A stretch of 50,406 nt of DNA, the filler included, from Basidioascus undulatus (lineage: Eukaryota): NCBI GenBank assembly GCA_000826855.1. It is 3 parts of 3 records of this genome, joined end to end, with 100 filler letters (N's around TTAATTAATTAA, not from the genome) between each part and the next. Parts side by side here need not be neighbours in the genome. Positions count along the whole stretch, not along the records: positions 16,864 to 33,608 come from JTLS01000572.1; 2 more parts are not named here. The stretch is one strand, 5' to 3'. Below the pieces are notes generated by a model. That model did no database searches. It was not told the DNA's origin and saw only the letters and a program-made list of their open reading frames with translations. The position numbers and the translations under genes are program-made. Shown here one piece after another: positions 1 to 36,441 of this stretch (position 1 is the first letter of the stretch; every line of letters begins with the position of its first letter).

Positions 1-2074
1 TCCCCGCCGCCGCCGCCGCCGCCGCCGCCGCCCAAACCCGTCTCGCGCTCGCGCCTGCTCGACTTCCTCCTCTTCGGCGGGGCCGGCGTCGGCCTCTACT
101 GGATCTACGACTACCTCTCGTCGCAGGAGGAGGAGCGCGCCGCGCGTACGAGCCCGATCGCCAAAGTCCTCAACCGCACCGGCAGTTTCACCATCCCCGT
201 GCGCAACAAGGACGGCGTCCCCACGATGAAGACCATCAAGCGCTTGTCCCACCCCGCGACGCTCCAGCTTCTCCGCAGGAACGAGGCCACGTACGTCGTC
301 GATCGCCCAGGGGGGAGCCTCGTCAAGGAGTACTTTGTCAACTCCATCGCGAGCAACGACACCATCGAGGACAGGCGCGCGGAGGCCATCGTCGAGCGCG
401 ATGTGCCCGCGAAGGACGTGCCCGAGGTTGGGAGGAAGGGAGATCTGCTTTTCTTGTGCGTTGTTTCTTCTGATATGTTTTGGTTTGGGCGGTCATTGAT
501 CGGTATGGGCATGCAGCTGCGTCTTCGATGGGCATGGAGGATGGCGGACCAGCGAGCTCCTGTCAAAATCACTCATCCCTGCTGCAGCTTTGCATCTTTG
601 TACGTCTCTTACACTTTTCAACCTCCAATCTATTGCTGAGATGTAGTTCCACAGCCTCACTATTCCACGGCAACTACCCGACCCCGCAGTCCCGCTTCTC
701 CTCCCTCAAACGCTACCTCCTCCCGGCCTCCTCCTCCTCCGCCCCGCTCGACGCCCAGCCCTCGCTCGTGACCCAGACGCTCAAGAACGCCTTCCTTTCC
801 CTCGACCACTCGATTCTCTCCGCGCCGCTCCGCGTCCTCTCCAACCTCCCCGCGACGCCGCCGCCCGCGCCCGAGCCCAGCGAGGCCCTCCTCACCGCCC
901 TCAGCGGCAGCTGCGCGCTCATGGCGTACGTCGACGAGAAGCGCGAGGACCTCTATGTTGCTGTCACGGGCGACTCCCGTGCGGTTGCCGGGTACTGGGA
1001 GGACGGGAAGTGGAGGGTCGAGGTGTTGACGGAGGACCAGACGGGTCGGAACCCGAAGGAGGTCAAGCGGTGAGTTGGGGCGAGCGTTGACTTCACCACT
1101 GTTGCTGATATGCTTCAGGGTACAAACGGAGCACCCCCCGGCGGAGGCACCGTATGTCATTCAGCGAGGACGCGTTCTCGGTGGGCTGGAGGTGAGGCTC
1201 ACATGCAATCGTTCCCTGATGTCTGATAATCTCACATCCGTTTGCAGCCGACTCGCGCCTTCGGTGACGCCCGATACAAGTGGCCTGCACCTCTGCAAAC
1301 CCAGTGCGTGTTTTTTGCATGCCTGAAAAGTGGACAGTCAGCGGTGACATGCGACTGGTCATAGGCTTGCAAACGCTCTTCTCCCTCCATCTTACCCCGC
1401 CCGGCCCCCTCCTCGCGGCCTCCTCACCCCTCCATACGTGACCGCCGAGCCCGAAGTCACGCACCGCTCCTTCGCCATCACGGGCCGCCCGCGGTTCCTC
1501 ATCCTCGCGACGGACGGGCTTTGGGACCGGCTGTCGAACGAGGAGGCGGTCGGCCTCATCGGCCGCGCTCTGGACGGCACGGGCAAGACGATGTCCAAGT
1601 CCAAGGGCTCGATGACGCGCTCTGAGCTGCTCAGGAGCGTCGTCAAGCCGCGCGATGGCGAGGAGGGCGTCGACGGCAAGAAGGGCAAGCGCGCGAGCGA
1701 CGAGGGCGAGACGGACGATGCGCACTACACGTTCGCAGAGCAGAACCTCTCCACTCACCTCATCCGCAACGCTCTCGGCGGCGCGCACGACGACCAAGTC
1801 TCGGCGCTGCTGTCCATCCCTGCACCTTATTCACGCCGCTTCTACGACGACACGACTGTGCGTAGCTGCTCGGTCCTTCTTTCTCGGTGCTTTCAACTAA
1901 TGCTAACGATTTGCTTTCGCTTGGTGTGCGCAGGTTTCCGTGATTGTATTTGACGACGTCAAGGACACCGCGCAGCAGGCCGCTGCTCACGAAAACGCAC
2001 AGCCGGTCGGCCTCACGCCACTGACGCCGCCGCCGGACGGTGTGCAGCCCGGCCCTGTGCTGGCCAAGCTCTGA
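1..2074 (+). CDS. PTC5: PP2C-family protein phosphatase, pyruvate-dehydrogenase-phosphatase/Ptc5-like; 5'-partial, multi-exon
   Basis: Spliced translation gives PP2C motifs NSIASNDTIED, CVFDGHGGW (intron 456-516), SGSCAL, VAVTGDSRAV, GRVLGGLEPTRAFGDARYKW, TPPYVTAEPEV, FLILATDGLWD, NLSTHLIRNALGG and YDDTTVSVI. N-terminal TM segment LLDFLLFGGAGVGLYWIY. Last exon 1934-2074 ends ...PVLAKL-TGA. Confidence 0.9.
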
Positions 2075-16763: not shown

Positions 16764-16863
16764 NNNNNNNNNNNNNNNNNNNNNNNNNNNNNNNNNNNNN
16801 NNNNNNNTTAATTAATTAANNNNNNNNNNNNNNNNNNNNNNNNNNNNNNNNNNNNNNNNNNNN
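16764..16863. other. Assembly spacer (44 N + TTAATTAATTAA + 44 N)
   Basis: Exactly 100 bp. The central 12-mer gives stop codons in all six frames, and the structure is identical at 33609-33708. Confidence 0.97.
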
Positions 16864-17346
16864 AAGCAGCACGGCGGGCGTCGAGGAGCCGCCTAAAGGA
16901 GATTGCTTAGTCTAAGTGATATCCCTTAATGATGCAAACACTACAAAAATGGGACAATTTGTATATTCTATAGGGTGCAGGATACGGGATAATTTAGTAA
17001 TGGAACAACTTGGTATTAACAGGTGAAATAAAAATCCATCAGGTGACCCAAATGACTTCCAAGCTTCCCCAGCACTGGAGAGGCTGCGTTCATGACGCGT
17101 CTGCGACGCATCCATCCAACTTGACGGTCCTCGAGACGCACAATCTGCGCGTATTGTACTTCCTAAAAGCATAACTCCCCCGTTTTGTGTTCTCTCTCGG
17201 CTACCGTACTGGTCCTCCTCCTACAGCGTCCAGCATGAATCCCGTCATCCTCACCCCCGCAGTCTCCTGCCCGCACCCCTCCTGTGCAAATGTAGACCGA
17301 CCTCCCCGATGCCTGAAGGTTTCCCGCCGCGCTCCCTATACCCGCC

Positions 17347-20300
17347 ATGCCGAAGCCGACAGTCGCCCAGAGGAATTTCGGCATATCCATCGGCACGTCC
17401 ACCCTGCTCGTCTTGAGGCTACTCAGCGTTCTGAAGAGTAAGAAGAGACTGGCAGATGGCCACCTATGATCAGCGGCCTCCTCGTCCCTCTCTCGCTCTT
17501 TCTCAAGATCGGCGGGTTGGCAGGGCGGTGGTATGTCCGCATCGAGAGGACGAATGGAAAGGCACCGACTGTCGTCGAGTCGGAGCCGAATCCTGTTTGT
17601 GCGTGCCGACTGTTTGAACAGGATGGATTGCGTTGAGCGACCTGATGAGACTTCGACTCGACAGTCTTGACAGCGTTACTTGGCGTCGCGCTAGGATGCG
17701 GAGTCGTGGCCAACGCCAGCCTTGCCATGCGCTTCTTTGAGAAGCGCCCGAAGCTGGCAACGCAGTTTGCGATGCTTGCCTTCACAGTGAGTAGTACGTG
17801 ACTGTTCAAATGCATGCGCTCAGGAACACATACTAATCCATTTGTTTCCAGTTATTGTCGACGTGGTCGCCGTAGGTCCCCTCCTGCCTTCGGCATGTAA
17901 TGAAACGACGTGCACACCGGCACAAACACTGCATTCGCTGTGCAGTTAACCTTGTTCAGCCACTACCGTAAACAATCTGGCGGGTGGTCGTACGGATCGG
18001 TATGCTGCTTCACCAACATTTACGGCCTGTGACCTTCACCTGCTGCTCTCCCAGCCATTCGGGTTGACAATCGCAACGACCTGTCTAGCGTGCGCTTTCA
18101 TCCACCCAATCCTCCGTTGCCGCTTCACACTATCGACGCTGACACTTTACCTTTCTAGAGGCCTCGCTCTCGCCCCCCTCGTATTCGACTACTGGCGCTA
18201 CGAAGATCTCGACAAAGTCGGTACGCACGCCGTCCACATCCCCGGCTCTCTCCAGAGAGTCAGAGTCTCCTGATTTGGGGGGGTGGGGGAGTTGGCCTTG
18301 ACCAGGGTCCGGCATCACACTTCACCAGCGCTCCGTCGTCGTGCTCTTCATAGTCGTGCTCTGTTACATTTCACTCGGCGGCTTCTGCTTCTCCCGCCTT
18401 CTGGACATCACCTTTGTCGAGGGCGTTTATTGTAAGCCTTACCTTTGGATCGTTGTGTACGCGGGCAATGTTCATTGGAAAGTGAAGATGACAGGGATTG
18501 AGCTTCTTATTCTCGTCGTGAGTGCGGCTGTGTTTAGGAGTACCGATAGGAAATCTCACGCAAAGAAGTCTCTAGGTTGGCTTCAGCGTGGTCCCGACGA
18601 AGTGGTACGTCAAGTTACTCAGCCTGTTCTATATCGGTGTGCGTGGCTGCGTACCTTTACTTGGGTCTTGCAACCGCTAAGGCAAGAGACGGGACTCTAC
18701 AGGGCGGTGTCGTGCTTGTCGGTTAGTCTTTCTACGGATCTGTATCAGGAGCGCACATTTTGCTCACAGGTCCCCGAGCAGTCCTCTTCGCCATCAACAT
18801 CCGAGAGACCCTCCTCGAGCGGCTTTCCCGACAGTGCGTCCCCTCTCCCAGCCCCTCCGTCTGAAATCCCTCACCCCGCCACCCCGCAGTCTCCTCCGCA
18901 CCCGCTCAGAGGCCCTCACGCACTACCGAGTCCACTATTCCGGACAAGATCAGCAGTTTGCGCGCCCTCATGAGGTCCATGGGGACCTTCCTCGCCCAAC
19001 GGACAACAGGGACGAGGGACATGCCGAGCAGCTTACGATGGAGCTGAAGGACCTCGCTAGTGAGGCGGAGAGCTGGGAGAAGTACACGAACGAAATCGAG
19101 AAGCAGCAGCAGAAACAGTCTTTGGCGAGAGTAAGTGAGATGATTATCCTGTGAAGCACGGCCATCGCCATCCGGGTGAATTGAAGGAGGACAGCAGTTG
19201 GCGATTTGTGCGGCACTGATGATGTCGTTCTGGCTGGTACCGTATCTTCTCATAGATCAGGTATGCTTAACGCTGATCAACCTACAGGTAGGGGCCGGCG
19301 TACTGTCGAGAATGGAAAAATGGCCCTTCTTCGATGCGTTTGTGAGTCACCCCTGAGCATCCCATCCAAAATCTGCGCTCTGACAATCCCAACCGCAACG
19401 CAGTACTTCTCTTTCACCTTCTTTCTCACCATAGGGTAGTGTCAAGTTTTCCGGAGAATTACCCTTCAAACATCAACATCACTGATAGATACCTGCGAAA
19501 ACAGCTTCCAGCGCGACCCGCAGACGTTCCAGGGCAAGCTGTTCGTGATTTTCTGGGCGTTGCTGGGCGTGCCAACATTAAGCAAGTCGTTTTCACTCTC
19601 CTCCTTCCTCTTCTCTTCTGCCGAGTCTAATAGACTCCGCGTACGTCAACCATAAGCCATTCTCATTACTCGCACGTTGCTTGCTTCCTTCGTCTTGCGC
19701 CTTCAAGCCGAGCTAATGTACACCACTCACTTCGGTCGCAGTCCTCGCTGATGTCTGGCATAAGAAGTACAAGCATGCTCTGCGTGATGAGACTTTCGTC
19801 CGCGCTATTGAGCGCATCGATGAGGAGAGCAAAAATACGCTGCAGCAGATGGAGGAGGGTGAGCGCAGTGCGAGCCAAGATCCAAGCGAGCGTTTGATGG
19901 CGATAGCAAAACATCTGCATAAGGCGAGCTTAAGCCTTTCCTTTCCATCTACATGATGTTGCCGAAGTTGACATATTGAGAATTGTATTTCACAGCACAT
20001 TCAAGTGAGAGGACGTTCCACATAGCTGCTTTACCTCTGACATGCCTATCGGAAACCTTCTACGCAGTTTCTCGTCGTCCACGGCCCCGAAGGTGGTCCA
20101 CCGGAGGCTTTAGAGGAGCTCCTTAACCACGTAAGCGGGGACGTCCTCTCGCAAGAGACGAAGGTGAGCATTCTGGACGACGAAGAAACCCGCCGAGTAA
20201 GTCCTTCTCTCCTTTCCGGACAAACTGTTTCCTCTCCATTGGCGTGCTCAACTTGATGTAATAGCGTCTCTTCGCCCTTTCTTATGAGAGTACGGCGCAC

Positions 20301-20558
20301 ATAGTCATTTCGAATTCGTGAGCATGAACAATAGCGTTGAGCTGACTGGATATGCAATCGATTATAGGAACCCTCGCGGCATTGGCGGAGGCTGTCCAGC
20401 AGACGTTGAAAATTCAGGGGAATGATCAGAGACGGGCTCGGACGAGACAGCTGTCGAGCCGTGAGAGCCGAAGGAAAAGTAGGAGGGGCGAGAGTGTCGG
20501 GAGAAAGGGGAGGTTTGAGCGTTATGTCCCTGCCGCAGCGGTTGCAATTGACGAATAG
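17347..20558 (+). CDS. TOK1: TOK-type (8-TM, two-pore-domain) outward-rectifier K+ channel homologue with non-canonical pore loops; many short exons, start uncertain
   Basis: Spliced peptides: PPMISGLLVPLSLFLKIGGLAGRWYVRIE...PNPVFLTALLGVALGCGVVANASLAMRFFEKRPKLAT; GSGITLHQRSVVVLFIVVLCYISLGGFCFSRLLDITFVEGVYWIELLILVVGFSVVPTKWYVKLLSLFYIGGGVVLV; INIRETLLE; FWLVGAGVLSRMEKWPFFDAFYFSFTFFLTIGFQRDPQTFQGKLFVIFWALLGVPTL; VLADVWHKKYKHALRDETFVRAI; ILDDEETRRRLFALSYERTL...IDE*. These match the remembered basidiomycete TOK architecture. Confidence 0.85.
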
Positions 20559-21149
20559 GCAACACCGAGTACCGACTGTGGTCGCTGCGTTGCGGAAGTA
20601 GCAGTGAAGTCTTATGCTGCGCTCTGCGTCGTGCTCCCAAGGACTTGAAAGCGAGAAGACAGCTTCCACAAAACCAGAACAAAAACCTGCCCTGCAGGTG
20701 AGACTCTTTAACACTTTTCGTCATACATATATAGTCTCTCAGCATTTTTTCGTCATCAGCACTACTTCCTCTTCCTCAAGTACCTTTTCGCTACCCCCAT
20801 CCAGGGTCAGACCGGGCCCTAAGCAGAGTAAGACTTGCGAAGTATGCGGTTTGTCCCCAATCGCCGGCGAGCAACTAGCAGCGAGCACGCAACGCAGGAT
20901 CTCTGTCGGCTTCCACTGTCAATTTATGATATAATTGTACAACGCTCAATTTCCACTCTCCCGCGCGCCCCAAGCGTGGCTCAGACCCTTCATAAATGTG
21001 TGCACAACGCGCAGTCAGCCCCACAATGCCCCAAGGCGAATCGGTCAGAAACGGGTTATGCACTACTTATAAGATCGAAGCTCAGGCTGGAACGCGGTTC
21101 CCTAGAGTTCGGCCGGGAGACGTAGGTAGGACCAAGTCAAAACCCGCAG

Positions 21150-21967
21150 ACGCACCTTTTTCGCCTCTTGCAGCTTGCGCACAGCCTTGTTCATGTCGTC
21201 CTGGGTGATGTACTCGCGGTCGGCGCCGATGGCGTTCATGCCCGCGCCTCGGTGCAGACTTTGCGAAGGTCCGCACCGCTGAAGTTCTCCGAGAGCTGGC
21301 AGCCCACACAGGCTATCAACAAACGCACTATATGAAGAGCAGTGAAGGGGAAAGTAAACTCACCCTTGCGATCGCCTCCAGATCGAGCTCGCATTCCTTC
21401 TGCGTACGCTGGCATGGATCTTCAGGATCTGTTGTCCGATCGTCAGACATCCCATAAGCAAATGACCGCTATGAGCAATGACTAAAGCAACTGGATACGC
21501 ACCTCTGCAATCGAGCCAACTCATTCGGCAGCGGGATCTCGATCTTCCTATCCAACCGTCCAGGGCGGAGCAGCGCGGGGCCGAGCGTGTCCCGCCGGGT
21601 CGTGGCCATGATAACCTTGATCTTGCCGAGGTAGTCGAACCCGTCCAGTTGGTTGATGAGCTGTTCTCAGCCGTTTCAACTATTGCGTCAGGCAGAGCAA
21701 AGAGACATGAGAGGACGAGGGAAGGGGAAGAGGAGGGAGCGGCCGTACCTCCATGAGCGTGCGCTGGATCTCACGGTCCGCGGAGGTACTGTACCCTCGC
21801 TGAAACGCCGCCCGCCACTGGCATCGATCTCGTCCATGCAGATGATGCACGGCTCGTGGTCTTTCGCATAGCCGAACATTTCCTGGTCTCTGAGTACGAG
21901 AGATGCAATCTGACAAAAGGAGAAAACGAAGGCGTACGCGGACGAGACGGGCAGATTCACCAATATA
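21150..21967 (-). pseudogene. RPT4: 5'-truncated, intron-retaining fragment of 26S proteasome AAA ATPase Rpt4 (subunit 10B)
   Basis: [134 protein letters not shown]. There is a 5-bp duplication frameshift at ~21786-21794 and further frameshifts. Walker A and the N-terminal half are absent. Confidence 0.9.
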
Positions 21968-22093
21968 CTGAAAGAGTACAGGCTGCCGCCGGCTCTTGTT
22001 CTCGACTCCCATCATCGCCAGCTCCCGCAACCCTTCGCCTCCTTCACGCTATACCTTCGCCTCTTCTTCATCCATATCTTGATTCAGACCGAC

Positions 22094-23037
22094 ATGTCTT
22101 CGGGACAAAAGCGCAGCTTACAGCGGACTCGCCCGACTCCTCCCCCCGCTCTCCTGCGCCACGAAGCGCAGCAAGCTCGACGATGCCCTGGTCGCGGTCG
22201 TGTACAAGGGCTCGTCCAAGGCGATTATTCGCTCGAAACTGGCGGTGAACTACGAGGCTGGTCTATCTACTCTCAAGATGAGCCTCTTCAAGGCCTGCGG
22301 CGCTGATGCGGAGGACTCGACTCGGCAGACTGCTCGCGCGCTCCTCGTCGGGCGCTTCCCCGACATCCCGAAGCAGCTGGCCAACCACGTTCAGCTGACC
22401 GCGCCAGTCGGGTCGCGCATGTGCGAGCTCGATCCCGAGGACTGGGACTCGCTCTACCCGATCCTTGAGGAGATCACCCTCGCTCTGTCGCCTGCGGTCC
22501 TCGAGGAGCACGCTCGGCGTTCGACCGCGCATCCACTCGCTCTACGGCAGCCGCATACCTCGTTCCCGTCCTCCACGGCTCTCTCAAACGCCACAGTCAA
22601 GTCCGAGGCCGACACGTACGTATGCTGGACTTTGAATCGCGGACTCGGAGGCGGTTGCTCAACGATGCTCTCCTTAGACCGCTGCGTATACAAATTCCGT
22701 ACCAATTGAGACTTGAGGTGCAGTTGATCGAGACGATGGATTTACAGCGGTGAACTACGGCACGCCTTGTCTCTAATCAAACTCGCTGCTAGGCTAACCA
22801 CCTAATCCCGCCGCACATCCAGACATTTCGTCGACCATGCTCCTCCAGAAGCTCTTCAACCACTTTGAGGAAGACGTCCGTCAGAAGGTCCTGGGAAGGC
22901 TGAAGGATCGCAAGCTCAATCAGTTCCATCACCTGCGTTTCCTCCTCTACGGGCAGCGACTCTCGAGGGACGAGACACTGGGGAGCTTGCAGATGAAGGA
23001 CGGGGACGTGATCGACGCTTTCTTTGGGCAGGAATGA
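22094..23037 (+). pseudogene. Protein with C-terminal SUMO-like (Rad60-SLD/ubiquitin-like) domain; apparently frameshifted
   Basis: C-terminal exon LLQKLFNHF...LRFLLYGQRLSRDETLGSLQMKDGDVIDAFFGQE* follows the SUMO-like pattern LRFL.DG.R...TP..L.MEDGD.ID. The ATG at 22094 is out of frame with ORF 22200-22709, with the break in a C-run at ~22142-22147. Confidence 0.6.
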
Positions 23038-23933
23038 TCGAGAACAAGAGGTGCGACTGGAGGGAATCGAGAGCGACGAGGGAGCTATGGCGGACGCGAC
23101 GAAGTTTCGGGCGCTTGTGGGGTGGCATGAAGATGGGCGTGTGAGATGTCAAAGAACTTGTGAGACCGCATCGTACCAACAATTGTTTCTTTTGGTGCTC
23201 TTGTCTCCCGAAGAATGAAGCACTTTTTTACCTCTCCCTTTCGAAGTGGGTAGAGCTATCGGTCCGGCCCGGCGTAGCTCCGGAATGCAACGCCGTTGCA
23301 TGCTTGACTGGCTGATTGGCTGACTGCACTGTGTCATCTTCAATCATTATGCTGCCACACCCCTAGAACTGGTAGCTCTGCCCCTGTTAGGTGAAAAAAA
23401 TCAATGGAAAGTCTGCCGAGATCAAGCGTGAATCGGACCTTTACAGATGTCGGCCTGGGAGCTTGCGAGGCAGAAAGTGGGCGGCTTCTTCGGTTCCCCC
23501 TTGTCCAGTCAGAGGGAATAGAGTTCGACAAGTTAGTTGAGACTTGGCCTTGGTTAACTACAGTATCCCAGAAGATTCCACGTCACCTCGAACTGCACGT
23601 TACTGCCGCGTTGAGGTCAACACCACGCAGTCAGCTTACAGCCAGAGATGAGGATCACTCCGCGATGAAGCCAACCATTAACTACTCAAAAAACGACGTA
23701 GGGCGACAAAAATTTCAGCCAGGCGCCATACCAGAGTCTTTGAATTTCATGCGGACGCGAATGCGAATGCGAATGCGGGAACGAAAGTACAAGCGAATGC
23801 GAGAATGGACAGCACGCGAATGAACGCGAAACTGTTTAACATATAACGACGAAGGTCAAAGTCATGCGTGGAAACTGGTGTAGAAAATGCGTTCAGTGTT
23901 CGACAGGGTTCCAATGTTTTGCGTGGCGGGCGA

Positions 23934-25652
23934 TCAGCTGGAAGCCTTGATCTGCCCGCAGTGAGAGCAAGACCAAAAGACGGCCTCCGTCTCTTGCTGA
24001 TCATCGGACACCATGTCAGTAACCCACCCTCCGTCAAAACTGCCGCGATGAAAGAACGTACTCCGCATCTCCCACAACTCCACCGGACCCCGCTTCCCAC
24101 CGCGCCTCCGCCGAGGAGCGCGCCCGTTCTGCCGGCCCGTCGTTTCGGAGGCGGGGGAGCGCGCGGCGGGGAAGGGGGGAATGTCAACGCTGGGCGGACG
24201 GAGTCGCATATTGTGCAGACGAGCGTGAGGGGCGGGTTGAATGCGAACGTGCAGGTTGGGCACGCCCAATTCTCGGTCGACTCGGCCCGTGTTGGTGGTG
24301 GGACGGACGAGCCGGATGGGAGGAAGGCGGACGAGGAAGAGGGGGTGGGGTCGATGGAGGAGGCGCGTCCCAACTGGCCGGAGAGAAGGCGAGAGGGAGG
24401 AGGTGTTGGACGGGTGCGAGGGGGTGCGCGAGAAGCGGCGACGGCGACGGGCTTCCGCCCCGCCGGGATTAGCGCTGTGGCGGGAGGAACTGCAGAGGAT
24501 GGCGCTCGAGAGGTTCGCTTCTGCGGGGGCATGTCGTCTTCAGACCCCGACGAGTCGATCTCGATGACGCCTGTTGGACGCGCCGGCGGGAGAGAAGGAG
24601 GCGCCTTGCCCTTGCCCTTGTCCGCTTTGACGGCGTCCTCCGCGGACGAGGACGTCGTGGCCGACAAGCCGGCACCAAGCGCATTCGGAACGACCTGCTC
24701 TGGCGCAGTCTTTATACCCTCCCTTGTCGCCTTTTCCGCCTCAGCGAGCGCCGCAGCGTCGTGCGAGCAAGCCTTCTCGTCTCGCGCCCTTCGCTCCGCA
24801 GCCTGTCCCCGCCAACCGTACATCAGCTACGCACCCGTAGCCCATATGATCTCATGTCAACTCACCGCGGCCATGACGTCCCTCAAGATCTTGCCGCCCA
24901 TCCCGACGTCGTGCCTGCCGCCCAGCCGCCCGCCGCGCCCAAGCCGGATCTGCAGGTCGTGTCGCTTCTGCGCGGCCTCGAGCGCGCGCCGCCTGCCCTC
25001 GGCGAGGCAGACGTTGTGGCTGACGCTTTGACCCATGCGCGTGCCTTGCGCGAAGAAGCCCTCGCCGTGGTATCCGCCGGCGCGGAGCTCGTCGTACTCG
25101 AGCGTGAGCTGACAGATGAATGGCGGCAGAGTCGTCAGCTATGAACATGGAAGGAGAAGAGCGAAAGAGTTCACCTTGTCGAGGAAGTCGTAGAAGACTT
25201 TGTCGTGCGGGCCGCGGACGTTGTGGGTCAGCTCGTGCAGCATCGTCCCGATGACCTGTAGGTGGACAGCCATCAGTCCCATTCGAACCCTGCTAGACGG
25301 CAGCGGGAGCGTACATCTTCGAGATCATAGAGCGTATCTGGAGCCTGCGCCGGCCTGAGCCGGAGGCATATCTTCGCGCCGCCATTCACGTTGATGCCCA
25401 GTAGATTGGGCTGGGCAGGGAGAAACTCCGCGAGGACGGGCAGCATCCACCCGCTACCATCCACAGCCCCTCATCAGCCCCAAGCCCTCGGCCCTGAACT
25501 CCGAATAAACGGATATGATGAACGCACTGTTTCTTCATGAGCGGCTTGACCAGGCTCGCGACGGTGTGGAGCATGTGCAGGGCCTCGCCCGCCCGGGGCA
25601 ATTGGGCGAGGTGCGTGAAGGACTTGATCCACCCCCCGGACGGGTCGGACAT
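23934..25652 (-). CDS. WSS1: WLM-domain metalloprotease Wss1 (DNA-protein crosslink repair) with C-terminal RanBP2-type zinc fingers
   Basis: ALHMLHTVASLVKPLMKKHGWMLPVLAEFLPAQPNLLGINVNGGAKICLRLR; VIGTMLHELTHNVRGPHDKVFY (HExxH); GYHGEGFFAQGTRMG; AAERRARDEKAC; WACPTCTFAFNPPLTLVCTICD; WSCGRCG..FWSCSHCGQIKASS*. Confidence 0.92.
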
Positions 25653-26133
25653 CGTCGACGGCGAGAGGTGATATGTTCGAAAATAAGACGAATGGAGATT
25701 GAGTGTGTGCGGTATACGAGCGAGCGAGCAAGGTTGTTCAGTAAACGAGGGGAGGATGCGAGTGGCGCGAGGGCAACCCGCAATCGCGGGACCGGAGTTT
25801 GGACGCGACGAGGACGCGTAAGCTGCTTCAGTGCCCCTGCCGCGTAAGCTTCTCTTTCTTTCCGAGGCTGGGCCCTCCCTCTGATAAATCAGTTTGCTTC
25901 AATGAAATATAAATCTACATATCGAGTGAAAGCAACTGCTGAGCTTGGAGCCAAACCCAGGCGAAGAAGAAAAAGTAGCGCCTTTCAGAGACACAGTAGG
26001 CTTCCTAACACAAACGTATCTTTCACCCCGGTACATGAATGAATCGAGCCATAATGTCTATTGTTCTCTAAGATGCGTGTAACTCTACCCGAACACGCGT
26101 CCCGCATTTCCTCCTTCATCCTCCTCTCGAGCT

Positions 26134-28335
26134 CTATGCCGTCTGCGCCGGTCCTCCCGCCCGCGCCTCAATCCACTTCTCGTGCTCGCGCTCCTCGCGC
26201 TCGAGGCGAGCAAGCTCCTGCGCGTACCGGCTGGCAGCGCGGATGCGAGGGCCGAACCGGTAGAAGACGAAGGGCAGGAACGCCATCGGCGTCGCGATCA
26301 TTGCTAGAATGCACGTCGCCCATTGGTATCCGACTATATGAGGGAGCGAAATATGTCAGCGGACATGCCAGGGCTCGATGAGTAGGGATTGATTTGGGCG
26401 AGCGTACCGTTCTGGTAGAAAGGCACGGCGACCAGGGTGAGTACACCAGAGAGGATCTCGCGGAAAAGCGATTGCCCAGTGATAGCGCTCGATGCCATTA
26501 CGCCGTACGACTCGACGGTGTAATCCGAAACGACAAGAAAGACTGGCGGTTCAGAAACGAGCAGATGAGCATCGGATCATACCGACCACAACGCGCGTGC
26601 GAGGTCTCGCGACTTACGAACATGGCTCGAAATGCCGAAAGCGCAGAGAGCAAACATTGACGCGAGGTAGTTAACTGAGGGTTGCGAAGACCAGGCGAAC
26701 CAGTAGAGCGAGACTGGGAAGAGGATGCCAGCTGGAGGATCGAGTGAATTAAACGTAGTGAGGGTATCTCCGAGAAGCATCCTCACGCACCGACCATACC
26801 CCAGAGCAGCTTGTGCTCGGGCACGTCCTTCTGCCGCGTCTTTTGTTCGATGCGGAGCGTCGCGCGCCGCTGGAAGTAGAAGAGCGGCATGGCGATGAAG
26901 AAACCCACTTGCATCGCGATGAAGACCAGGTTGATGTTGGGCTCCGTGAACCCGTACTGCTTGTAGATAAGCGGCGCAGACTCGACAGTGAGGTACTGTA
27001 GAGGGTGCAAAGGGGATCAGAGCCTTGCCCGGCAAAGGAAGACAAAGATGTAACGCACGATGATGCCGTAGTTGAGCCCGTCCCACAGACCGAAGAGGAA
27101 GACGATCGGCTCAGTCGTGAGCATGACTGGTCCCCATGGTCACCCACTGGTCAGCCTCATTCCGTTCAGGCCTAGCGCCCATCCCAGTCTTCACTCGCCG
27201 ACAGGCCTCAGCACCGTTTCCTGCACGATCTCCTTCACGCTCCTTCGCCCGAGCCGCTCGTGCAACGCCCACGCCTGCAGATCGCCATGCTTGCGCGCCT
27301 TCTTCGCGCGGCGCACGAGCAGCGGTCCGCCGCGAGTCTCGGGAACGAAGAGCAGGAACAGCACCATCAGCCCGAACCCGATGATAATGCCGATCCAGAA
27401 GATCCACCGCCAGGACAGGCGGTGCACGATATATCCTCCGCTATGCGACGAGAGATAACACTTCAGCACAAAGGAAGTCGAGGAAAGATTGGGGTCGAAA
27501 AGAAGACGCACAAGAGCGGGCCGAGGATGATGCTCTCCGCCGCGAGAGCCCAGAAGTTGAGCGCCCACAGGCCAACGACGTCCGTGCCACGGAAGAGATC
27601 GGGGATGTTGCAAACAGAGTTGAAGATGGGCGAGGCGAAGAAGCCAGCGAGAAAGCTGTTCATCGATGTCAGTCCGTCTCTCGGAGGAATAGTGTGCTCG
27701 ATCCGCTTACCGGAGAATCGCAAGGGTGGCTATGTTTTGCGCCAAAGCACAGCCGACAGCGAGGACGTATGAGACGACCATGCATATGGTGAAGACATAC
27801 TTTCGACCATAGTCCTGTTGCCACAGTCGGTGAGCGTCCCCCATCCCTAGGATTGTGGAAAAGAGGAAACGCACCTCCGCAAAGGGCGTGAGCACCACAG
27901 GGCCGAATCCGAACCCAAACAGGTACAGCGCGAGAGGTAGCTTGCTCTGTACTGCAGGAATACCGAACTCCTCCTGGACGTGCGACGAGGCCGGCGCGAA
28001 GATGGAGCTCATCATCGTCACCCAGAGCATCTGCAGGCCGCTATCGGTTCGCAGTCGCACCTCAGCATCCCGCAGGGTTTCGCGAGACGCGTCAGGGACT
28101 TACACGATGAAGACTACAAAACATTTCCGGGTATTCGACCAGTTGAACGGATTGCCGGCATCATTGGGCTGTTGATGAATCCGAACTCCTCTCAGCGCCC
28201 TTCCCTCCTCCGAGCTGACAGTCGCGTGCCACTCACCTGCCAGTGTACCAGATTCTCCGGATCGCCCCCTTCGACTTCCTTCTCTTGGAGCTCCTCAGCT
28301 ACGATCGTCTGAGTGGGCGAAGGGTCGGCCTGCAT
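26134..28335 (-). CDS. MFS transporter, DHA1 (drug:H+ antiporter) family
   Basis: ENLVHW..DAGNPFNWSNTRK; SSIFAPASSHVQEEFG; GFGPVVLTPFAEDYGRKYVF; ILRFLAGFFAS; WRWIFW; FVPETRGGPLL; TEPIVFL; PEHKL; SLYWFAWS; ESYGVMASSA; FYRFGPRIRAASRYA; stop TAG at 26134-26136. Confidence 0.92.
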
Positions 28336-29475
28336 TGGGGCAGATGCGGCGGGCTCGAGGACGAGGAAGGATGAGGTTCTGCTATCGTGCCATCGCGTCA
28401 CTAGGATTCAAAGCTCGCTTCCCCATGTCCTACACGGAGCGCTGACTGAGCAATAAAGTGGACTTGCAAAGGGTGATGGCCGCCGCGGTCCCGAACCTGA
28501 AGAGATGAATGCGAAAGGACGACGAGGACACACAGTGCAAGGGCGGAGCATGGACGAGCTGATGCAGCTCTCTCGCTGAGCGGTACGCGCGGCTTCGATA
28601 CACTGGCTTTTGAGGCTTGAGGAAATGCCGCGGATAACTGAAGGGCACACATCATGCCTCATTGTGCGGAACATGCAACTCAGTGATTTTCCAGCCACTG
28701 AAAACAACATACGGTTAGAGATATGTATACTGTAAAGTCGCTGAGGCTTGTCTGCAGGCAAATGGAAACAACTTGTGGTCCGTCCTGCAGAGGAGAATGA
28801 TGCCGCTGCGCTTTGCTTTCAGGAATTCCCGGCTTGTGATTCTCACAAGAAAGGCTTTTGGAGTTTCTCCACAAATCCAGCTTGAAAACATTATACGATT
28901 CATGGTTCTGACTCGAGTGTCAGCAAGCACTTGGAGATCAGGATCTGCCAAAGATGGCAAACAGCAAACGTGCACTCAACAAGAGACAATCTGTAGCTTG
29001 AGCCCGAGCGAGATACCTTCAATCATATACAAGAATTGATTTCTACAATGTACTTTACCCTGACAGTTAGAAATAAGACGTGTTCGAGCTCCACACGTCG
29101 CAATGCCACCCCTCGTCTCACTGTCATCCCCGGCCTCTCCATTTACAACACACCTCTCGCCCTCAAACTCGAAATGAGTTTTGGTACCCTTTCGGATCTA
29201 CGAGAATTGGTTAAGCGGCTGGATGATGGGCACCACAAGCCCGGTATTCCTCCTCCAGCAGCTCAAGGTCCCTATGTTTCCCAAACCATGCGGATGTGCT
29301 TCCAGTTTTCCCTTTCGAAATCTGCGCCCCCTTACAGATTCCCCATGATTCTCCGTCATGGTACAATGCGCAAGGCATGGGCAACCGATCGTACAACAAA
29401 CCTGCAGGCCCGCACACAGGTGATGTTCGCAGTAGTAAATCTGCAGGTCGAGCCTCAATTTAAAACCTTTACATC

Positions 29476-31167
29476 CTAGACCCCTCGCGGAATTCGAACG
29501 CAGCTCTCACACAGGGCAGATAAAACAACCAGCATGCTCAGCAGTCCATTACCGTCACGCCTTGACCGCGTAACCACAGACCACCCCGTAATTGACCTGG
29601 AGGGTCTCCAGCTCTTGTCGGCTGTGGACGTGCATGTTGTGCAAGTGGCTCTCCGCCATGCCGCAATGGATGAGGAGGGGTATGAGTGCTCTGAAGAAGA
29701 CATCTAATGTCCTCGGAGTGTGTTAGCGCTCCATGGATGGATAAACTGACCGGATCAACACATTGGTGTCAATATCCCCCAGGCACCGATGTTCTTCAGT
29801 TGCGGGTCTGCGTTGCATTCTGCTCAGCTTGTACACGTCTCATGCAAAACCAAAGGCGATCTAACGTACCGGAAGGTCACGGGCCGACGTGGACTTTGAA
29901 CTCCTGGACTTTGCTCTCCGCGATGAGGCCCTCTTTGTGGAGGGAGGAAAAGTATTGAGGAACTGCGTGAGCAACAAACCCTCTCTATTAGCATGTGTTG
30001 CAGCTGCCAGCTGTGCCTGCTAGGGAACACGTCAGTGCGTATTGTTTGAGGGAATGAGGATGTCCACTCCCGCTTGGTCCAGAGTGCGCAGAATCTCGCC
30101 CAAAACTCGCACAGCGCAGGTCCAGCGCCCGTGGAAGGGTTGAGGTCCGGCTCGACGACGAGGAGGACGCCGCCTGGGCGGAGAAGGCGAAGGCAGTTGC
30201 GGATGAGGCCGTGCCAGTTCGTCACCTAAACCGGAGGGCACCTGAGGGAAATAATGCTACGCTTTGAGGAACTGTGTGAGTCAGGAACTGTATGACTTAC
30301 TCCGAGGAGGAGGAATCGAATGTGCACAACATCGAAGAATCCCGGCGTGAAGAGGTCCAGGTCCTTGGTCACGTCGCATACCTCGAAGTTGACGTTCAGC
30401 GGCATGGTTCTGAGAGACAGTTTGAGTGGAAGGCCTCAGTCTTACCATGATCGCGCACTTAAAGCGTGAGTGGGGACATACTCAGGTTGGACAGGAACGA
30501 GGTCCACCCCGGTGACGAGCGCAGACTCGAACTGCTGAGCGATCTGAATAGCGCTAAGAACCCTGAGCTCAGTGAGGTGCATGACTTATACTTGACGAAA
30601 AGAATCAAGGCCTACCATGCGCCTGCACCAGTTCCAACGTCGCTGAAGTGGTCACAACATGAGCATCACCATTCGGCGATAAGATGCGCTGAGATCCCAC
30701 GTACAGGATCCTCCGTGTTTCGCCTTCGGAGGCTCGCTTGGCGATCACGTCCTCGACGGGGCCGAAATAAAGCTTGCCCAGAAACAACAGGAGGATCTGG
30801 TGCTGCGAGGCCCCCCTCCTCGTTCAGTACCCACCGACCACGCACTCTCCCAGCGCCTCGCTCCTACCTGAACGTCCAGTCGCTCAAGCTGCTCATCTGC
30901 AGCAAACGTCCCTCAGCCGCCCAGATAATATTTAGGTTTGAAGAAAGCCTGACTTGCCGTCATTATGCAGTTCATACACGTCGTTGCTGTTCTGGAACCT
31001 CCTGCCTTCATAACGTAACATCGGAAGAGTTAGCGCTCTCTGTTGCAAGTCGAGAAGACCATGAACAGCTCCTTACCTTGGTAGTATTGGTACAGATCAG
31101 CGTTGATCGTGCTCGTGAGCGAGTACATGCTCTGCGTAGGGGAGAGGCGAGCGTGTGGGGGAGCCAT
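29476..31167 (-). CDS. Class I SAM-dependent methyltransferase, LaeA/TAM-like; carries one in-frame TGA (possible recent pseudogene)
   Basis: SMYSLTSTI; YEGRRFQNSNDVYELHNDDEQLERLDVQHQI; GKLYFGPV; ILDVGTGAGAW; VTGVDLVPVQP; PLNVNFEVCDVT; FDVVHIRFL; VTNWHGLIRNCLRLLRPGGVLLVVEPD; KVHVGP*PSDPQLKNIG. Confidence 0.82.
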
Positions 31168-31895
31168 TGGAACCGCGAGGTTTAGATAAAGGTAAGAAAG
31201 GATAGAGGACGAAGCAAATTACAGCAACCTCCAGTGCATCGTTTATGTACTCCGGGTGATGATCGGCGCAGCCGCATTTGTCGAGGTGCTCGCCCGCCTG
31301 CATGCAGTGGTCCTGCAGCGGTCCCACCCAGTTGGCAGACGCTTGCCGAATTTGGCAGGTGCCTTGAGCGCTCGTATTTTGGCGTTTCTGAGGGGGGCGT
31401 TCAGAAGCAGATCTGGGGGGCAGAAAAACGACGGACAGGCAGTGTTGCGATCCCACCTTCCCTTGCACAGCTCGCTGCAAGTAGACCGAAGTCTGCCGAG
31501 GCCTGACAGTCAAGGTCCGAGAGCCGACTCATTTCAAATTGCAGCCGCTTTCACGCACCAAGAGTCGGCGACGCTCATCACAGTCATGAATGACATCCCG
31601 TTCCGAACGACGATGCGAAGCAGAGATCAATGCTTTAGACTCAACACGGTGTTGCACTAATAACTAATAAATGAGTTGGTAAAGTAAGCTAAAGGTAGGT
31701 AGGTATAAGGCATGGGGGCGGAGTAATACTGTAATACGACAGGATTAAACAGTGGGCAGATAGTTAATAACCGATTCCATCCAGCACAAGGTAGACCGGG
31801 CTCCCTGGGGCGGGCGGAACAAGGAGAAGGGGAAGGACGGGGAAGAGGAAGAAGAGTGCGCAAGGAGGAGGGAGAAGAAGAGAAGAGGAAGACGA

Positions 31896-33608
31896 CTAAT
31901 AGGCCCAGCCCATAGCGTCGTTGAGCGCGGCGGTGTACCCCTCCAACTCGAGTCCCTCGTCGCCCGGCGCAGCGCCAGCCGCGTCCGCGCCAAACATCCA
32001 TGCGACTGAGCCCTCCGTCTGGGCTAGGTTGAGCGTGAGGTCGAGCGAGTGCTCAGGCGCGGTGGGGGCGGGGGCAGGCCAGCTGTCAAAGAGGAGGGAC
32101 GGGTCGACCGCGGGCGCCTCGCCGCGCTCCCAGACCGAGGCGTCGCGCTCCCACGCGGCCTTGACGAGCTCCGCGGGGGAGGGGATGGCTGACGGGGCGA
32201 AGGTCGGGGGCGCGGAGGGGGAGGAAGGGTCGGAGGGGGCAGGAGGAGCGGGGTAGGATGTGGGAGCGGGGACGTCGACTTCGAGGCCCAGGGGGGGAGG
32301 GCCCCACGCGAAGTTGCTTAGCTCCAGGTCGGCGGGGGGGGCGGACGATAGCGGTGGGGGCGGGACGAAGAGCGGCGTCGTGTCGATGTGGTATTGCGCG
32401 TAGAGGGCTCCCGAGGCGGACGGCGGCGGAGGAGGGTGGTCCTCGGCATGCGCTGCGGCGAGCTGGCTCAGAGTGTGGAACGCTGCGAGGTGCGGCGGGG
32501 GCGAATCGCCCGGCGCGGACGCGGGGGGGAGGTCAGCGAGGACGGATGGTCGCGGGCCGGGTCCGCCCGCGGAGACGGGGTAGCACTCGGGGGGGAAGTC
32601 GAGCACGGGCGGGGGCTTGCTCGCGCGCTTGCGGGTGCGGGTGCTGCCCGACGAACCAGACGGACTGCGCGCAGGCGAAGGGGAGCGTGAGCGCGAGCGG
32701 CGCGCGGACGACTCGGACGGCGGGGGTGCAAGGTGCGTGGTCGCTTCCGCCTCGACGCGGATGGCGTCCCGCTCGATCGCAGTCGCGCCCGCGGCGAGGC
32801 GTTCCGCGATGAGCTCGCACTCGCGCTCGGTCGTCGCGCGCCCTTCCTCCGGCATGAGCCGCCGCCGCCGGCGTACTTGCCCCGGGCGCACGCTCGGCTG
32901 GTAGCGGTACTCGGGGTTCGCGGCGCTGAGGGAGGAGGAGGTCGGGTCAGAGAGGAATGTGTGCAGAGGAAAAGAAGGGAACAGGGAGCTCACCGATGCG
33001 CCTCCTTCTCCCGCTCGGCCTGCTGCTCGAACGGCGCGCGCTCCGGGGGCGGCAGAGCCTTCCACATGAACGCGGCGATCTTGGAGATGTTTCGCTGGTC
33101 GTTCTCAGACGACCGCTCAGCGAGCCCGTTTTCAATCACGTGTGACCTGAATCCCACATCGTCAGTGCCAGTTCCTACTCGAGAGGCAGTTTGGGGGACG
33201 CACCGGTAGATGATGAACGCGTTCCTGGGGCGCTTGACGTGCCCCTCGGGAACCTTGCGCGCGTGGCTCGCCTTGCTCTTGCGCTTGCTGGGCGCGCCAA
33301 GGGAGGCGGACGAGCCGGCGTCGGACTCGGACGGGGTAGGGGCGGAGGGGGACGCGCTGTCCCATGAGGAGGCGGAGCCGGCGGTGCTGGGCCGCCAATC
33401 GTCAGAGGGCGAGGGGGAGCGGTGGCTCTCTGCCGGGGAAGGATACGAGGAGGCTGCGGAGGAGGGGCGCGAGGGGTGGTTGAAGGACTCAAGCTGCCCT
33501 GCGGAGAAGTTGGTGAAGAGCGTTGGGGTCGGGGGGAGGAGCGCGAGCAAGGGAACGATCGGTGCTGCAAGGGAGGCGAAGGAGGCGGAGGTGGGGGGCG
33601 GGCTGGGG
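31896..33608 (-). CDS. MATA/SOX-type HMG-box transcription factor; 5' end lost in the gap
   Basis: SHARKVPEGHVKRPRNAFIIYR/SHVIENGLAERSSENDQRNISKIAAFMWKALPPPERAPFEQQAEREKEAHR/AANPEYRYQP, followed by a long Pro/Ser-rich tail ending AMGWAY*. Two introns lie in the HMG box. Confidence 0.9.
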
Positions 33609-33708
33609 NNNNNNNNNNNNNNNNNNNNNNNNNNNNNNNNNNNNNNNNNNNNTTAATTAATTAANNNNNNNNNNNNNNNNNNNNNNNNNNNNNNNNNNNN
33701 NNNNNNNN
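33609..33708. other. Assembly spacer (44 N + TTAATTAATTAA + 44 N)
   Basis: Same 100-bp construct as at 16764. Confidence 0.97.
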
Positions 33709-36441
33709 CCCCGTCCCCGCCCCCGCCGACCCATATCCACTGAAGGAACTGCTTGCCCCTGAGGTACCATCGCCGTAAGATCCCCAGTTTCCATCGCTAC
33801 CGCCTCTCCCTCCACCGTATTTACGGCCGCGCCAAGCTGTTCTGACCGAACGGGGAGTAGGAGGAACGAAGGGTTTCGGCGGCGGCGGGATGTAAGGAGA
33901 GCCCCAACGCAAAGCTTTTGCTTTATCTACAGGTCCTTCACGCCAGCATACAACCGAATCGAAGGCTCTGAGTGGTTGATCGTAGCCCTGTAAGGATTGT
34001 CAGAAAAAGGACTAAAATCAAAGAAGCCAGTCAGAAGACTTACGACACAGAACCGTCCGCAGTTCGGTTGCTTCCCGTCGAAAACGTTCGGGTCTCGGAC
34101 GCCTACGAGCGCCCAGCCCGCAAGACCGATCGAACCAAAGTCGGCGGGTACACCTTTGTGTCCAAGCGGTATACTACCACCATCAAACGCCGATCTGCGA
34201 CGACGCTTCGCCGACTGGTGCTCGCGCCCGGCGTGCGCAATGGCGAAGGCCTCAACATTCAAGACAAGGATGCTCGAGTGCTCCGAAGGGTACGATGCTA
34301 GGTTGCCGTGTCGATAGAAGCGTCGATGGCGGATCCGGCGGACGAAGTGCTTAATTTCGTCGGTGAAAGACGATGAGAAGGGTCGGAATGACGAGTAGGG
34401 AGTCTTGTACGTCTTCCACCATAGTTGCGACGTGTCTCCGAAAGCCTTGTCTAGACATAAAAGTGTATGTGAGAAGGCGCCATGACTTCGAAAGCAAAAA
34501 CGTAACGTACTGAAAGTTTCCTCCTCGACATGTGCCTCATGGTCGATGTACCTATACCGGCATTCATATTCGCGGAAGTCTCTGTGGATTGTGATGATGA
34601 GAGCTAGGTCAGACTTACAAGACAGGCGCCCTGACGCACCCGCGAGTGTAGCACTCTGAATCGCGCAAGTACTTATTCCCTATGAGCTGGTATGTGTGCC
34701 ATATGAGGTCGATGTCGAGAGTTGGGACAAAGAAGCGGTGATGGCGCCGATGAAGGAAGAGGAAGTGGTAGTAGCGCGAGATAGACTGAGCGATCGGAAA
34801 GGATGCGTGGGACTTGTCAAGCCACCCGAGGGAGAACGCTTTGTTGGTGAAAGTCGAGAGGCGGAGGACCTGTTGTAACAAGACTCTGAGTGAGCATAAG
34901 TCTAGCACAAAACAGAAGCGAACAGCATCATACTGCGTCAAGAGATCGACAGAGAAAGGTGTAGGGTCGCTATAAGCGGACAACATCCTGAGGAGCCTGC
35001 TGAAGAAACGTTTGAGTGACAAGTACAGCTTCAGCAAACCGGCGGCATACCTTGGCTTGTACTTTATCCATACTTCTTCCGGTGAGGTATGATCCTGAAG
35101 CTGAGGTTTGAGGAATGGCTCAAGGACGTTTCTCGTCCACTGTTTTTGAATGGCCTGCTTGGGTTGGGCGTAACCGGAGGTATACGAGTACGAAGTACCC
35201 CCTTCTTTCTGTGCTCGGACGATGTTCGCGAGGGTTTCGCTTGCCTCGGTCACGCTCGACTCTACACGCTCAAGCGACCAGCCGAGAAAGTCGCCGACCG
35301 AGCGCCTGTTAGGTGCGACCTCGATGAACGGTTGGATGAGAATCGACGCGAGGCGCTTCGGATCAACCGGATCCTTGAATCTGGTAAGCGGGTCAAAGAG
35401 AGTGCCGCTTGAAAAGGTAGAGGGTGAGCGTTACCGTTGAGTTTGAAGATGACAGCCGCATAGAGCCTCACGCAAGAGTCTTCTCCCCGTTATTCAAGCA
35501 ATCCGCCACGTCACTCGAGAACTTTCCGACCGCTAGGCTTTCACGCTTGTCAAAGTAAGAACGAAGTCAGTAGTGATGTTAGTTGGAGCTTAAATCAATT
35601 CAACGCACTGTGATTGCCAAACCGCATGCGTTGCAGGTTGTGCTGAAGCCGTTCTGGCACCAGCCTCGGCCTTCGACCTTGCCGCCCAGAAGCTCGACCG
35701 GAGGCTCAAGCCAAGGGACCATTGTCCTCTGACCGCACCGCGGACATTCGAGAGCTCGATGGTGCTGGCAGCCGGGGTAGATCTCGAGCGGGATGTACGG
35801 CGTCGATGTCTTACTCGTCCAGAACGCTACTTGATCCTTCGTCGGCCAGAACTGGAGCGATACAGGCTCAATATGCGATACCTGCGGAGTTTTCAGCGCA
35901 TCAGCGCCTGCACAAATTTCTCGGACTCTGAGAGAAGAAGCACGATTCGCTCCAGAGGCATCCCGCCGATTGCGTCCAGCTTCGAAAACTTGCGCTCCGT
36001 GTCTTCCGCGTACGCCCACGGGTTGAGCAGGTAGGCGTGCCACACGAGGAGAACATCCAGAGGCGGGATGGCGCGGTCCTCGAGATCTCGGCGATGTCCA
36101 CCTGGCTTGACGATATGCTTAAGCCAGAGTTCGAATCGATGTACGGCCTGCTGGAGGAACACGCGCCAGCGTACAGCGGCAGGCGAGTCCGAGTCGCTGG
36201 GAAGCGGTGTAGAGACGGAGCGCTCGATTGCATGGAAGGCGGCGAGGAGGCGCAGGTGCGCGAGGACAGTAACGCCACTTATGCCGATATCGGTACCGTA
36301 CGATTCCCGTTTTGTACTGACCCAGATGTGCTTTGGTACGTCGGCGAGAGACGGATGGTCGGTTAAGAAGGACGCGAACGTAGACGACAGTGATTTGTAG
36401 CGAAGTTGCGGTGAGGGTGAGAGCTGGTCTGATTCAGGCAT
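33709..36441 (-). CDS. DUF1399 / glycine-rich domain-containing (GRDP-like) protein; 3' end runs into the gap
   Basis: HLRLLAAFHAI; RWRVFLQQAVHRFELW; IPPLDVLLVWHAYLLNPWAYAED; LECPRC..GWCQNGFSTTCNACG; ISRYYHFL..FFVPTLDIDLIWHTYQL; YIDHEAHVEE; Gly-rich C-terminus. Confidence 0.85.

Follow-up and report, generated by a model that had tools for sequence, protein, structure and literature searches.

TOK channels are specific to fungi, are discussed as antifungal targets and are described, in the accessible parts of two reports, as consisting of four helices followed by two modules in which a pore loop (P) is flanked by transmembrane (TM) helices (TM-P-TM; PMC3410928; PMC13323377). According to the available portion of the earlier survey, essentially all the fungal TOK homologues analyzed keep the GXG motif in both pores, and a Candida albicans TOK record (XP_712779) is noted in which VYG replaces GXG in pore 2 (PMC3410928). 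CaTOK, for which structures have been reported (PDB 9PIK, 9PKO and 9PKP), presents the selectivity filters (SF) TIGLGD and TIGYGD, the second of which (SF2) is given as strictly conserved in TOKs, and combines them with a cytosolic S6b/S7 helical module and a structured C-terminal helical domain; the same text, in the part available, states that K2P channels always keep G-x-G in both filters (PMC13323377). Several TOK genes may be found per basidiomycete, as indicated in the accessible sections of two further papers (PMC4101882; PMC7678990). Here we analyze a TOK-like gene in which both pore loops depart from this motif, located in a stretch of 50,406 nucleotides (nt), filler included, from Basidioascus undulatus (GenBank assembly GCA_000826855.1), hereafter the window, within the part that comes from JTLS01000572.1 (positions 16,864 to 33,608). 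In the literature searched, which left out most subscription journals and all supplementary alignments, we found no TOK-like gene described as devoid of the motif in the two pores.

Pore loops and architecture of the predicted protein

Once spliced, the first pore loop (P1) of the predicted protein reads ...L-I-L-V / V-G-F-S-V-V-P-T-K and the second (P2) ...L-T-I-G / F-Q-R-D-P-Q-T, each being interrupted by an intron at the position of the slash (Table 1). The TxGxGD filter is absent from both, P1 presenting VVGFS and P2 TIGFQ. The first glycine and the aromatic residue are retained in the two loops, as are the pore-helix aromatics and the proline and threonine that follow the loop, but the second glycine and the aspartate are gone from both and P1 is also missing the threonine hydroxyl. 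Three residues separate the aromatic residue from the proline in each loop, as opposed to four in the canonical TOK filter, and in the register downstream of the P2 filter the threonine of ...PQT is aligned to T139 of TRAAK, with the next helix aligned over 18 residues. A first-pass annotation of the locus had read the loops as YWIELLILV/VGFSVVPTK and YFSFTFFLTIG/FQRDPQT, and had pointed out in both the loss of the second glycine and the aspartate and a shortening by one residue before the proline; joining the exons by coordinates yields the same loops, the two residues are indeed lost, and the shortening fits the canonical spacing, with the alignment to TRAAK in support of the downstream register.

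The splicing of the loops can be compared with sequencing runs of this organism. Two of these (X1 and X2) are DNA, none is listed as RNA, and a third (X3), obtained from the sample of X2 and labelled 'DNA?', was taken as transcript-like because GT..AG stretches that are retained in the DNA runs are missing from its contigs. It constitutes a single data set from one sample, with seven contigs over the locus at depths of 3.5-7.9, in which rare isoforms drop out of contigs; its junctions were counted from joints, from the letters between joints and from loose ends. Of the two loop junctions proposed in the first pass, that of P2 (19435/19505) is directly seen in a spliced X3 contig (joint 19434>19504, 'cut +1', GT..AG, depth 7.29), so that its split glycine codon (19434-19435 plus 19505) follows on from the codons for T (19428-19430) and I (19431-19433) in exon 16, whereas the P1 junctions lie where X3 provides no cover and are read from the sequence alone. 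The X3 depth in the bin 18487-18603 (1.2 = 5.02 x 28/117) suggests a contig start at 18576, which was not counted as no loose end is listed there.

All frame-keeping GT/GC-AG combinations were enumerated around each loop. T-x-G-x-G-D appears in none of the 208 two-intron and 29 one-intron solutions for P1, four of which do hold G-V-G, with an upstream glycine fused to the VGFS exon and the pore helix destroyed, and G-x-G appears in 0 of the 36 solutions for P2. No micro-exon with flanking introns of at least 35 nt could be placed inside either loop intron, and at 58 and 69 nt these introns are therefore too short to hide one. Hence, among GT/GC-AG choices, no micro-exon or alternative splicing of the kind contemplated in the first pass restores the GD of the filter.

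The exons were joined by coordinates so as to hold the frame open, and the resulting model is one choice among those that keep it. It begins at the first ATG past 17100, with an in-frame stop upstream at 17172, and hydropathy identifies in it eight hydrophobic segments (residues 56-76, 97-123, 130-156, 168-189, 199-234, 259-285, 370-395 and 424-448), with pore-loop-like stretches between S5 and S6 and between S7 and S8. The TOK topology (S1-S4, S5-P1-S6, S7-P2-S8) is reproduced by the model only with exons 6 and 14 included, both of which present open frames and ordinary splice sites. These eight segments and two loops, together with a single spliced X3 contig (record 18) in which the exons of S3 and S5 are linked, bear out the TOK-like layout recognized earlier. 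The 3' end of exon 17 (GC donor GCAAGT at 19582, leading to a 160-nt intron) is one choice among several and is unobserved in X3. Two modelled introns, 18432-18494 (63 nt, just ahead of pore helix 1) and 19237-19287 (51 nt, inside S7), are stop-free multiples of three, the retention of which would preserve the frame. An open frame of 170 codons on the opposite strand (17163-17675, -) overlaps exons 1-2 and probably arises from the GC richness of the coding sequence.

Family assignment was addressed with single exons of 6-80 residues, which are too short for sensitive searches. Exon 17 matches the Pfam family Ion_trans_2 (PF07885) over profile positions 46-66 of 79 (E 0.003; 17.8 bits, below the cut-off of 22.5), being the only one of ten fragments scanned to do so and leaving the P1 exons unmatched; it also matches 32 K2P chains in PDB (best E 0.014), and the S5 exon is weakly like M1 of TREK-2 (E 7.6). 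When the PDB was queried with the exons of S1 and P1 and with the S7 piece, nothing useful was returned, and CaTOK is not among the PDB matches of these single-exon queries, its presence in the searched copy being unconfirmed. In a single-sequence AlphaFold2 model of the 80-residue linker exon 13 (mean predicted local distance difference test score, pLDDT, of 69), a helix is predicted at residues 41-79 that leads into S7 (block pLDDT 73-95).

Relatives were not recovered by any of the broader searches. An exhaustive phmmer search with the 80-residue linker exon found 0 relatives among 1.84 billion representative proteins, word searches of longer proteins with the S5 exon and the S2-S3 exon gave 18 candidates each and none at E<=10, two metagenome scans produced 494 and 439 pattern matches of which none was confirmed, and the ESM Atlas returned no usable match. 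Within the window, tblastn of the model gave 10 matches, all inside the gene, and hence no paralogue. As a control, the neighbouring GRDP-like gene retrieved only 2 proteins, both from Logan assemblies; the collections are therefore fungus-poor and the blank searches say nothing about novelty. Overall, the gene is best termed TOK-derived or TOK-like, and not a TOK channel.

Maintenance of the reading frame and transcript-like junctions

No stop interrupts the 619-codon frame. In neutral simulations the probability of such an outcome is 0.28, 0.04 and 0.003 at 2, 5 and 10% divergence, respectively, and no trial among 2000 remained free of stops at 20%. The GC content at third codon positions (GC3) is 68% for the model, reaching 77% and 72% in the two pore modules, as compared with 51% GC in introns and a GC3 of 66-77% in neighbouring genes, and coding composition is intact in every part. 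The hallmarks of a pseudogene (stops, frameshifts, lost coding composition) were thus not found, and since the introns are retained the gene is not a processed copy.

X1 and X2 each contain the locus (17200-20700) in two versions, roughly 5-6% apart (for example, 16 differences and 1 gap over 246 nt, or 19 differences and 2 gaps over 319 nt), pointing to an organism of high heterozygosity, either dikaryotic or diploid, or else to two strains per run. The variants listed comprise 40 of 196 substitutions and 12 of 19 indels, and lie for the most part in the linker and C-terminal region. Among them, all 12 indels between haplotypes or strains fall in modelled introns, even though exons make up 877 of the 1638 nt of the span, and 25 of the 40 substitutions fall in exons. 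The intronic location of the 12 listed indels indicates that any inactivation is much younger than the filter changes, and these must also predate it because the rest of the frame is free of the lesions that neutral drift soon brings, while each loop differs from the TOK consensus by several substitutions and the loss of a codon. We infer that selection was still acting on the reading frame when the filters changed, and that the changes were tolerated at the least. The reading that we favour, if tentatively and with slightly less than even confidence, is that of a TOK-derived protein whose frame stayed open once K+ selectivity had been lost.

Several observations weigh against this reading, the first of them from splicing. 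X3 presents 14 junctions at the locus, of which 11 agree with the open frame and 3 break it, with a stop soon after each (17786/17852, 18028/18161 and 19130/19292); in terms of the model, 11 of its 21 introns are seen, 5 are contradicted and 5 are unobserved, X3 being without cover over introns 2, 8, 9 and 17. Junction 17786/17852, deduced from 26 loose letters ahead of 17852 that correspond to 17761-17786 with three X2 variants, uses a perfect donor (GTGAGT, 17787-17792), and the frame needs the weaker, overlapping GTAGTA at 17791. Junction 18028/18161 takes the place of two introns of the model and bypasses exon 6, which encodes half of S4. The contig that holds it, record 18, adds up to 307 letters (26+20+83+59+119) with no room left for exon 6, and is identical to the window in exons 5 and 8, so the break applies to this allele. 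Likewise, 19130/19292 joins across exon 14, which encodes half of S7, and its acceptor at 19292 lies 4 nt past the start at 19288 needed by the frame. Neither exon 6 nor exon 14 is carried by any of the seven contigs of this low-depth set, and the open frame depends besides on the unobserved 160-nt GC-AG intron. Present-day output is therefore doubtful, the transcript-like mRNA being out of frame at three places, and any productive isoform would have to be rare or conditional, if it exists at all. A micro-exon at 18055-18062 was considered as a rescue of 18028/18161 and rejected; on paper it keeps the frame, but the intron required would measure 26 nt and the letters of record 18 are all accounted for.

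The allelic differences and the searches add to these objections. The listed exon differences amount to 14 non-synonymous against 7 synonymous codons, and the divergence of C-terminal exons (7-10%) is not below that of introns: exon 20068-20196 differs between haplotypes at 13 of 129 letters (10%), and 20368-20569, which is mostly the last coding exon, differs at 15 of 202 letters and contains a 1-letter gap (X3 record 22). The changes in exon 20068-20196 are mostly amino-acid-changing, include two multi-letter codon changes and, among listed differences, exceed those of the neighbouring introns. In the pore regions the second haplotype differs by 19 letters over 18322-18640 and by 9 over 19331-19539. 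The listed differences are suggestive of relaxed constraint, at the least in parts other than the membrane core. In addition, the S1-S4 and P1 exons are without a Pfam or PDB match as single-exon queries, and no orthologue was retrieved, so that long-term maintenance is argued from one sequence.

Viewed against these data, the first-pass description of an otherwise intact gene, with flanking helices and C terminus in open frame, holds for one frame-keeping model and for the absence of stops in its 619 codons, and fails at the three needed junctions that X3 contradicts, two of which join across the small exons of S4 and S7. A similar division affects the proposal of a selected shift as opposed to decay, which is supported by the stop-free frame, by the contrast between 68% GC3 and 51% intron GC and by the intronic indels, and opposed by the 14:7 ratio of listed codons.

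Table 1. Coordinates of the channel-like gene, its parts, the X3 junctions that agree with the open frame, and neighbouring genes labelled by Pfam on single exons.
Feature	Position	Strand	Basis or remarks
Frame-keeping gene model	17235-20558	+	22 exons, 21 introns (51-160 nt), 619 codons plus stop
Exons 2-7, four hydrophobic segments (S1-S4 equivalent, residues 56-189)	17456-18220	+	Hydropathy
Exon 6, 35 nt, first half of S4, required by open frame	18055-18089	+	Frame-keeping solutions
Exon 8, S5 and start of pore helix 1	18306-18431	+	X3 record 18 covers up to 18423
Exon 9, 23 nt, end of pore helix 1	18495-18517	+	Last codon 18515-18517 is first V of VVGFS
Intron 9, 58 nt, GTGAGT..AG, within P1 loop	18518-18575	+	Splice-site reading
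Exon 10, V-G-F-S (18576-18587) then V-V-P-T-K, start of S6	18576-18638	+	Sequence
Exon 13, 241 nt, cytosolic S6-S7 linker	18890-19130	+	Uninterrupted in X3 records 19-21
Exon 14, 39 nt, first half of S7, required by open frame	19198-19236	+	Frame joining
Exon 15, remainder of S7 and loop preceding pore helix 2	19288-19341	+	Frame joining
Exon 16, pore helix 2 and T-I-G	19404-19435	+	Both flanking junctions seen in X3
Intron 16, 69 nt, GTAGTG..AG, within P2 loop	19436-19504	+	X3 joint, depth 7.29
Exon 17, F-Q-R-D-P-Q-T and most of S8	19505-19581	+	Sole piece with family match
Exons 18-22, cytosolic C-terminal region	19742-20558	+	Four junction pairs seen in X3 record 22, plus loose end
Micro-exon, 9 nt, C-terminal region	19996-20004	+	Present in spliced X3 contig
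Exon of 25 nt, C-terminal region	20265-20289	+	Present in spliced X3 contig
Agreeing junction, GC-AG intron	17392/17456	+	Intron 17393-17455, donor GCACGT
Agreeing junction	17871/17946	+	
Agreeing junction	18220/18306	+	
Agreeing junction	18721/18782	+	
Agreeing junction	18833/18890	+	
Agreeing junction	19341/19404	+	
Agreeing junction, GC-AG intron	19923/19996	+	Intron 19924-19995, donor GCGAGC
Agreeing junction	20004/20068	+	With 19923/19996, bounds the 9-nt micro-exon
Agreeing junction	20196/20265	+	
Agreeing junction	20289/20368	+	
PP2C phosphatase	474-1953	+	Pfam
AAA ATPase (proteasome-subunit-like)	21102-21770	-	Pfam
RanBP2-type zinc-finger protein	23747-24826	-	Pfam
MFS transporter	27191-27706	-	Pfam
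GRDP-like protein, two PF07173 matches	34615-36513	-	Pfam

The window as a whole has an intron-rich, GC-rich and fungus-like setting, and none of its five Pfam-labelled genes is evidently linked to the channel-like gene. Runs of N at ~16770-16860 and ~33600-33660 appear as X in translations, the first of them about 400 nt upstream of the gene start.

Proposed mechanism and alternative explanations

Under the favoured reading, the protein would long have existed as a TOK-like form unable to build a four-site K+ filter. A dimer would have four loops, two of them VVGFS and two TIGFQ, in which the inner part of the filter could persist, given that pore helices, first glycine, aromatic residue and Pro/Thr are kept, and the outer half could not form, with the second glycine absent and each loop one residue short. 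As the mechanism we propose a monovalent cation pore of weak or no selectivity, a non-conducting TOK-like subunit pairing with a canonical TOK appearing somewhat less likely. By analogy with channels in which the outer filter is altered, a short, weakly selective cation pathway would be the likeliest outcome as regards conduction and selectivity, and the Na+/Ca2+ permeability advanced in the first pass is purely conjectural. A bolder version of this reading, which we consider unlikely, would see the gene as alive and as belonging to a TOK-derived lineage not yet described, with a shortened single-glycine filter (G-F-S/G-F-Q), convergent with Trk/HKT- or NaK/CNG-type loops, functioning as a non-selective pore or as a dominant modulatory subunit and yielding a productive isoform only in certain conditions, when the small exons of S4 and S7 are included in a regulated manner.

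The strongest competing explanation, and one that we deem possible if on the doubtful side, is that of a recently inactivated TOK paralogue, a young or incipient pseudogene with drifted filters in which splice-site lesions give out-of-frame mRNA. On this account, the apparently intact frame would partly reflect the freedom available in picking cryptic GT/AG sites. It agrees with the non-productive state of all X3 contigs at the three critical places, where exons 6 and 14 appear in none of them, the transcript donor is a perfect GTGAGT lying 4 nt before the one that the frame needs and the acceptor used at 19292 is displaced by the same distance beyond the needed one; it agrees as well with the excess of non-synonymous listed codons, with the 10% divergence of a C-terminal exon and with the breakage of both filters. 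Against it stand the 619 stop-free codons (P 0.04 at 5% neutral divergence), the coding composition preserved in every part and the confinement of the 12 listed indels to introns across haplotypes ~5-6% apart, as well as the open frames and ordinary splice sites of exons 6 and 14 and the fact that X3 is one low-depth data set (3.5-7.9) from one sample, the contigs of which drop rare isoforms.

Two other explanations bear on the loops and on the family assignment. That the odd loops result from a wrong gene model, the real mRNA encoding canonical GxGD filters, could be entertained on the grounds that introns interrupt both loops, that the P1 junctions are unobserved and that the gene does hold micro-exons of 9-25 nt and GC-AG introns; the P2 junction of the spliced contig, the lack of a filter motif in all 36 P2 and 208 + 29 P1 alternatives and the shortness of the loop introns leave this explanation close to refuted. 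Somewhat less improbable, though still very much so, is an origin in a non-TOK lineage of two-pore membrane proteins that shares the general pore-loop architecture, related for instance to the single-glycine loops of Trk/Ktr/HKT. The G-F-S loop type recalls Trk/HKT, the S1-S4, S5-P1 and S7 exons lack a match to a Pfam family or PDB chain, and CaTOK is absent from the PDB matches of a copy in which its presence is unconfirmed. Nevertheless, these exons are too short for sensitive searches and such blanks carry little weight, P2 retains T-I-G-F, exon 17 matches K2P/Ion_trans_2 and not Trk, and the order of four helices plus two TM-P-TM modules is a TOK hallmark in the accessible parts of PMC3410928 and PMC13323377.

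If the open frame was kept after both filters were lost, the gene would constitute a natural experiment on the TOK scaffold without K+ selectivity, which could show a leak cation channel, a silent partner or a role unrelated to conduction as its outcome, and a 'pseudo-channel' would be added to the fungal K+ transport set. Should the lineage view hold in its most novel form, a fungal K+ efflux channel would have turned into a non-selective pore or a modulatory subunit. If, on the other hand, the gene is a dying paralogue, it would represent ordinary gene loss and a warning that splice-site picking can make intron-rich genes look intact.

Comparison with known channels and transporters

The predicted protein shares with the TOK channels of fungi, such as Saccharomyces cerevisiae TOK1 and CaTOK, its eight TM segments, the two pore loops per chain preceded by four extra helices and a sizeable cytosolic C-terminal region, and its P2 retains T-I-G and the aromatic residue. 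The predicted 39-residue linker helix running into S7 is also reminiscent of the S6b/S7 module of CaTOK, as this is described in the available part of its report (PMC13323377). It differs from CaTOK in both filters, its SF1 being VVGFS and its SF2 TIGFQ, each one residue shorter. The C. albicans record XP_712779 provides another instance of a TOK homologue with a non-canonical second filter, but its departure concerns one glycine of one loop and involves no change in length, whereas both loops are changed and shortened here. With regard to the animal K2P channels (TRAAK, TREK, TASK and THIK), exon 17 aligns to their P1-M2 region, and these proteins have four helices as opposed to the eight of this gene. 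A pore helix combined with a loop is also found in NaK and CNG/HCN, non-selective relatives of K+ channels in which lost or replaced outer filter residues accompany weak or changed cation selectivity, and in the Trk/Ktr/HKT transporters, with single-glycine pore loops that the G-F-S-type loop of P1 brings to mind. NaK, CNG/HCN and Trk/Ktr/HKT, however, belong to different families and have different topologies, and the likeness of the Basidioascus undulatus protein to them concerns mechanism only.

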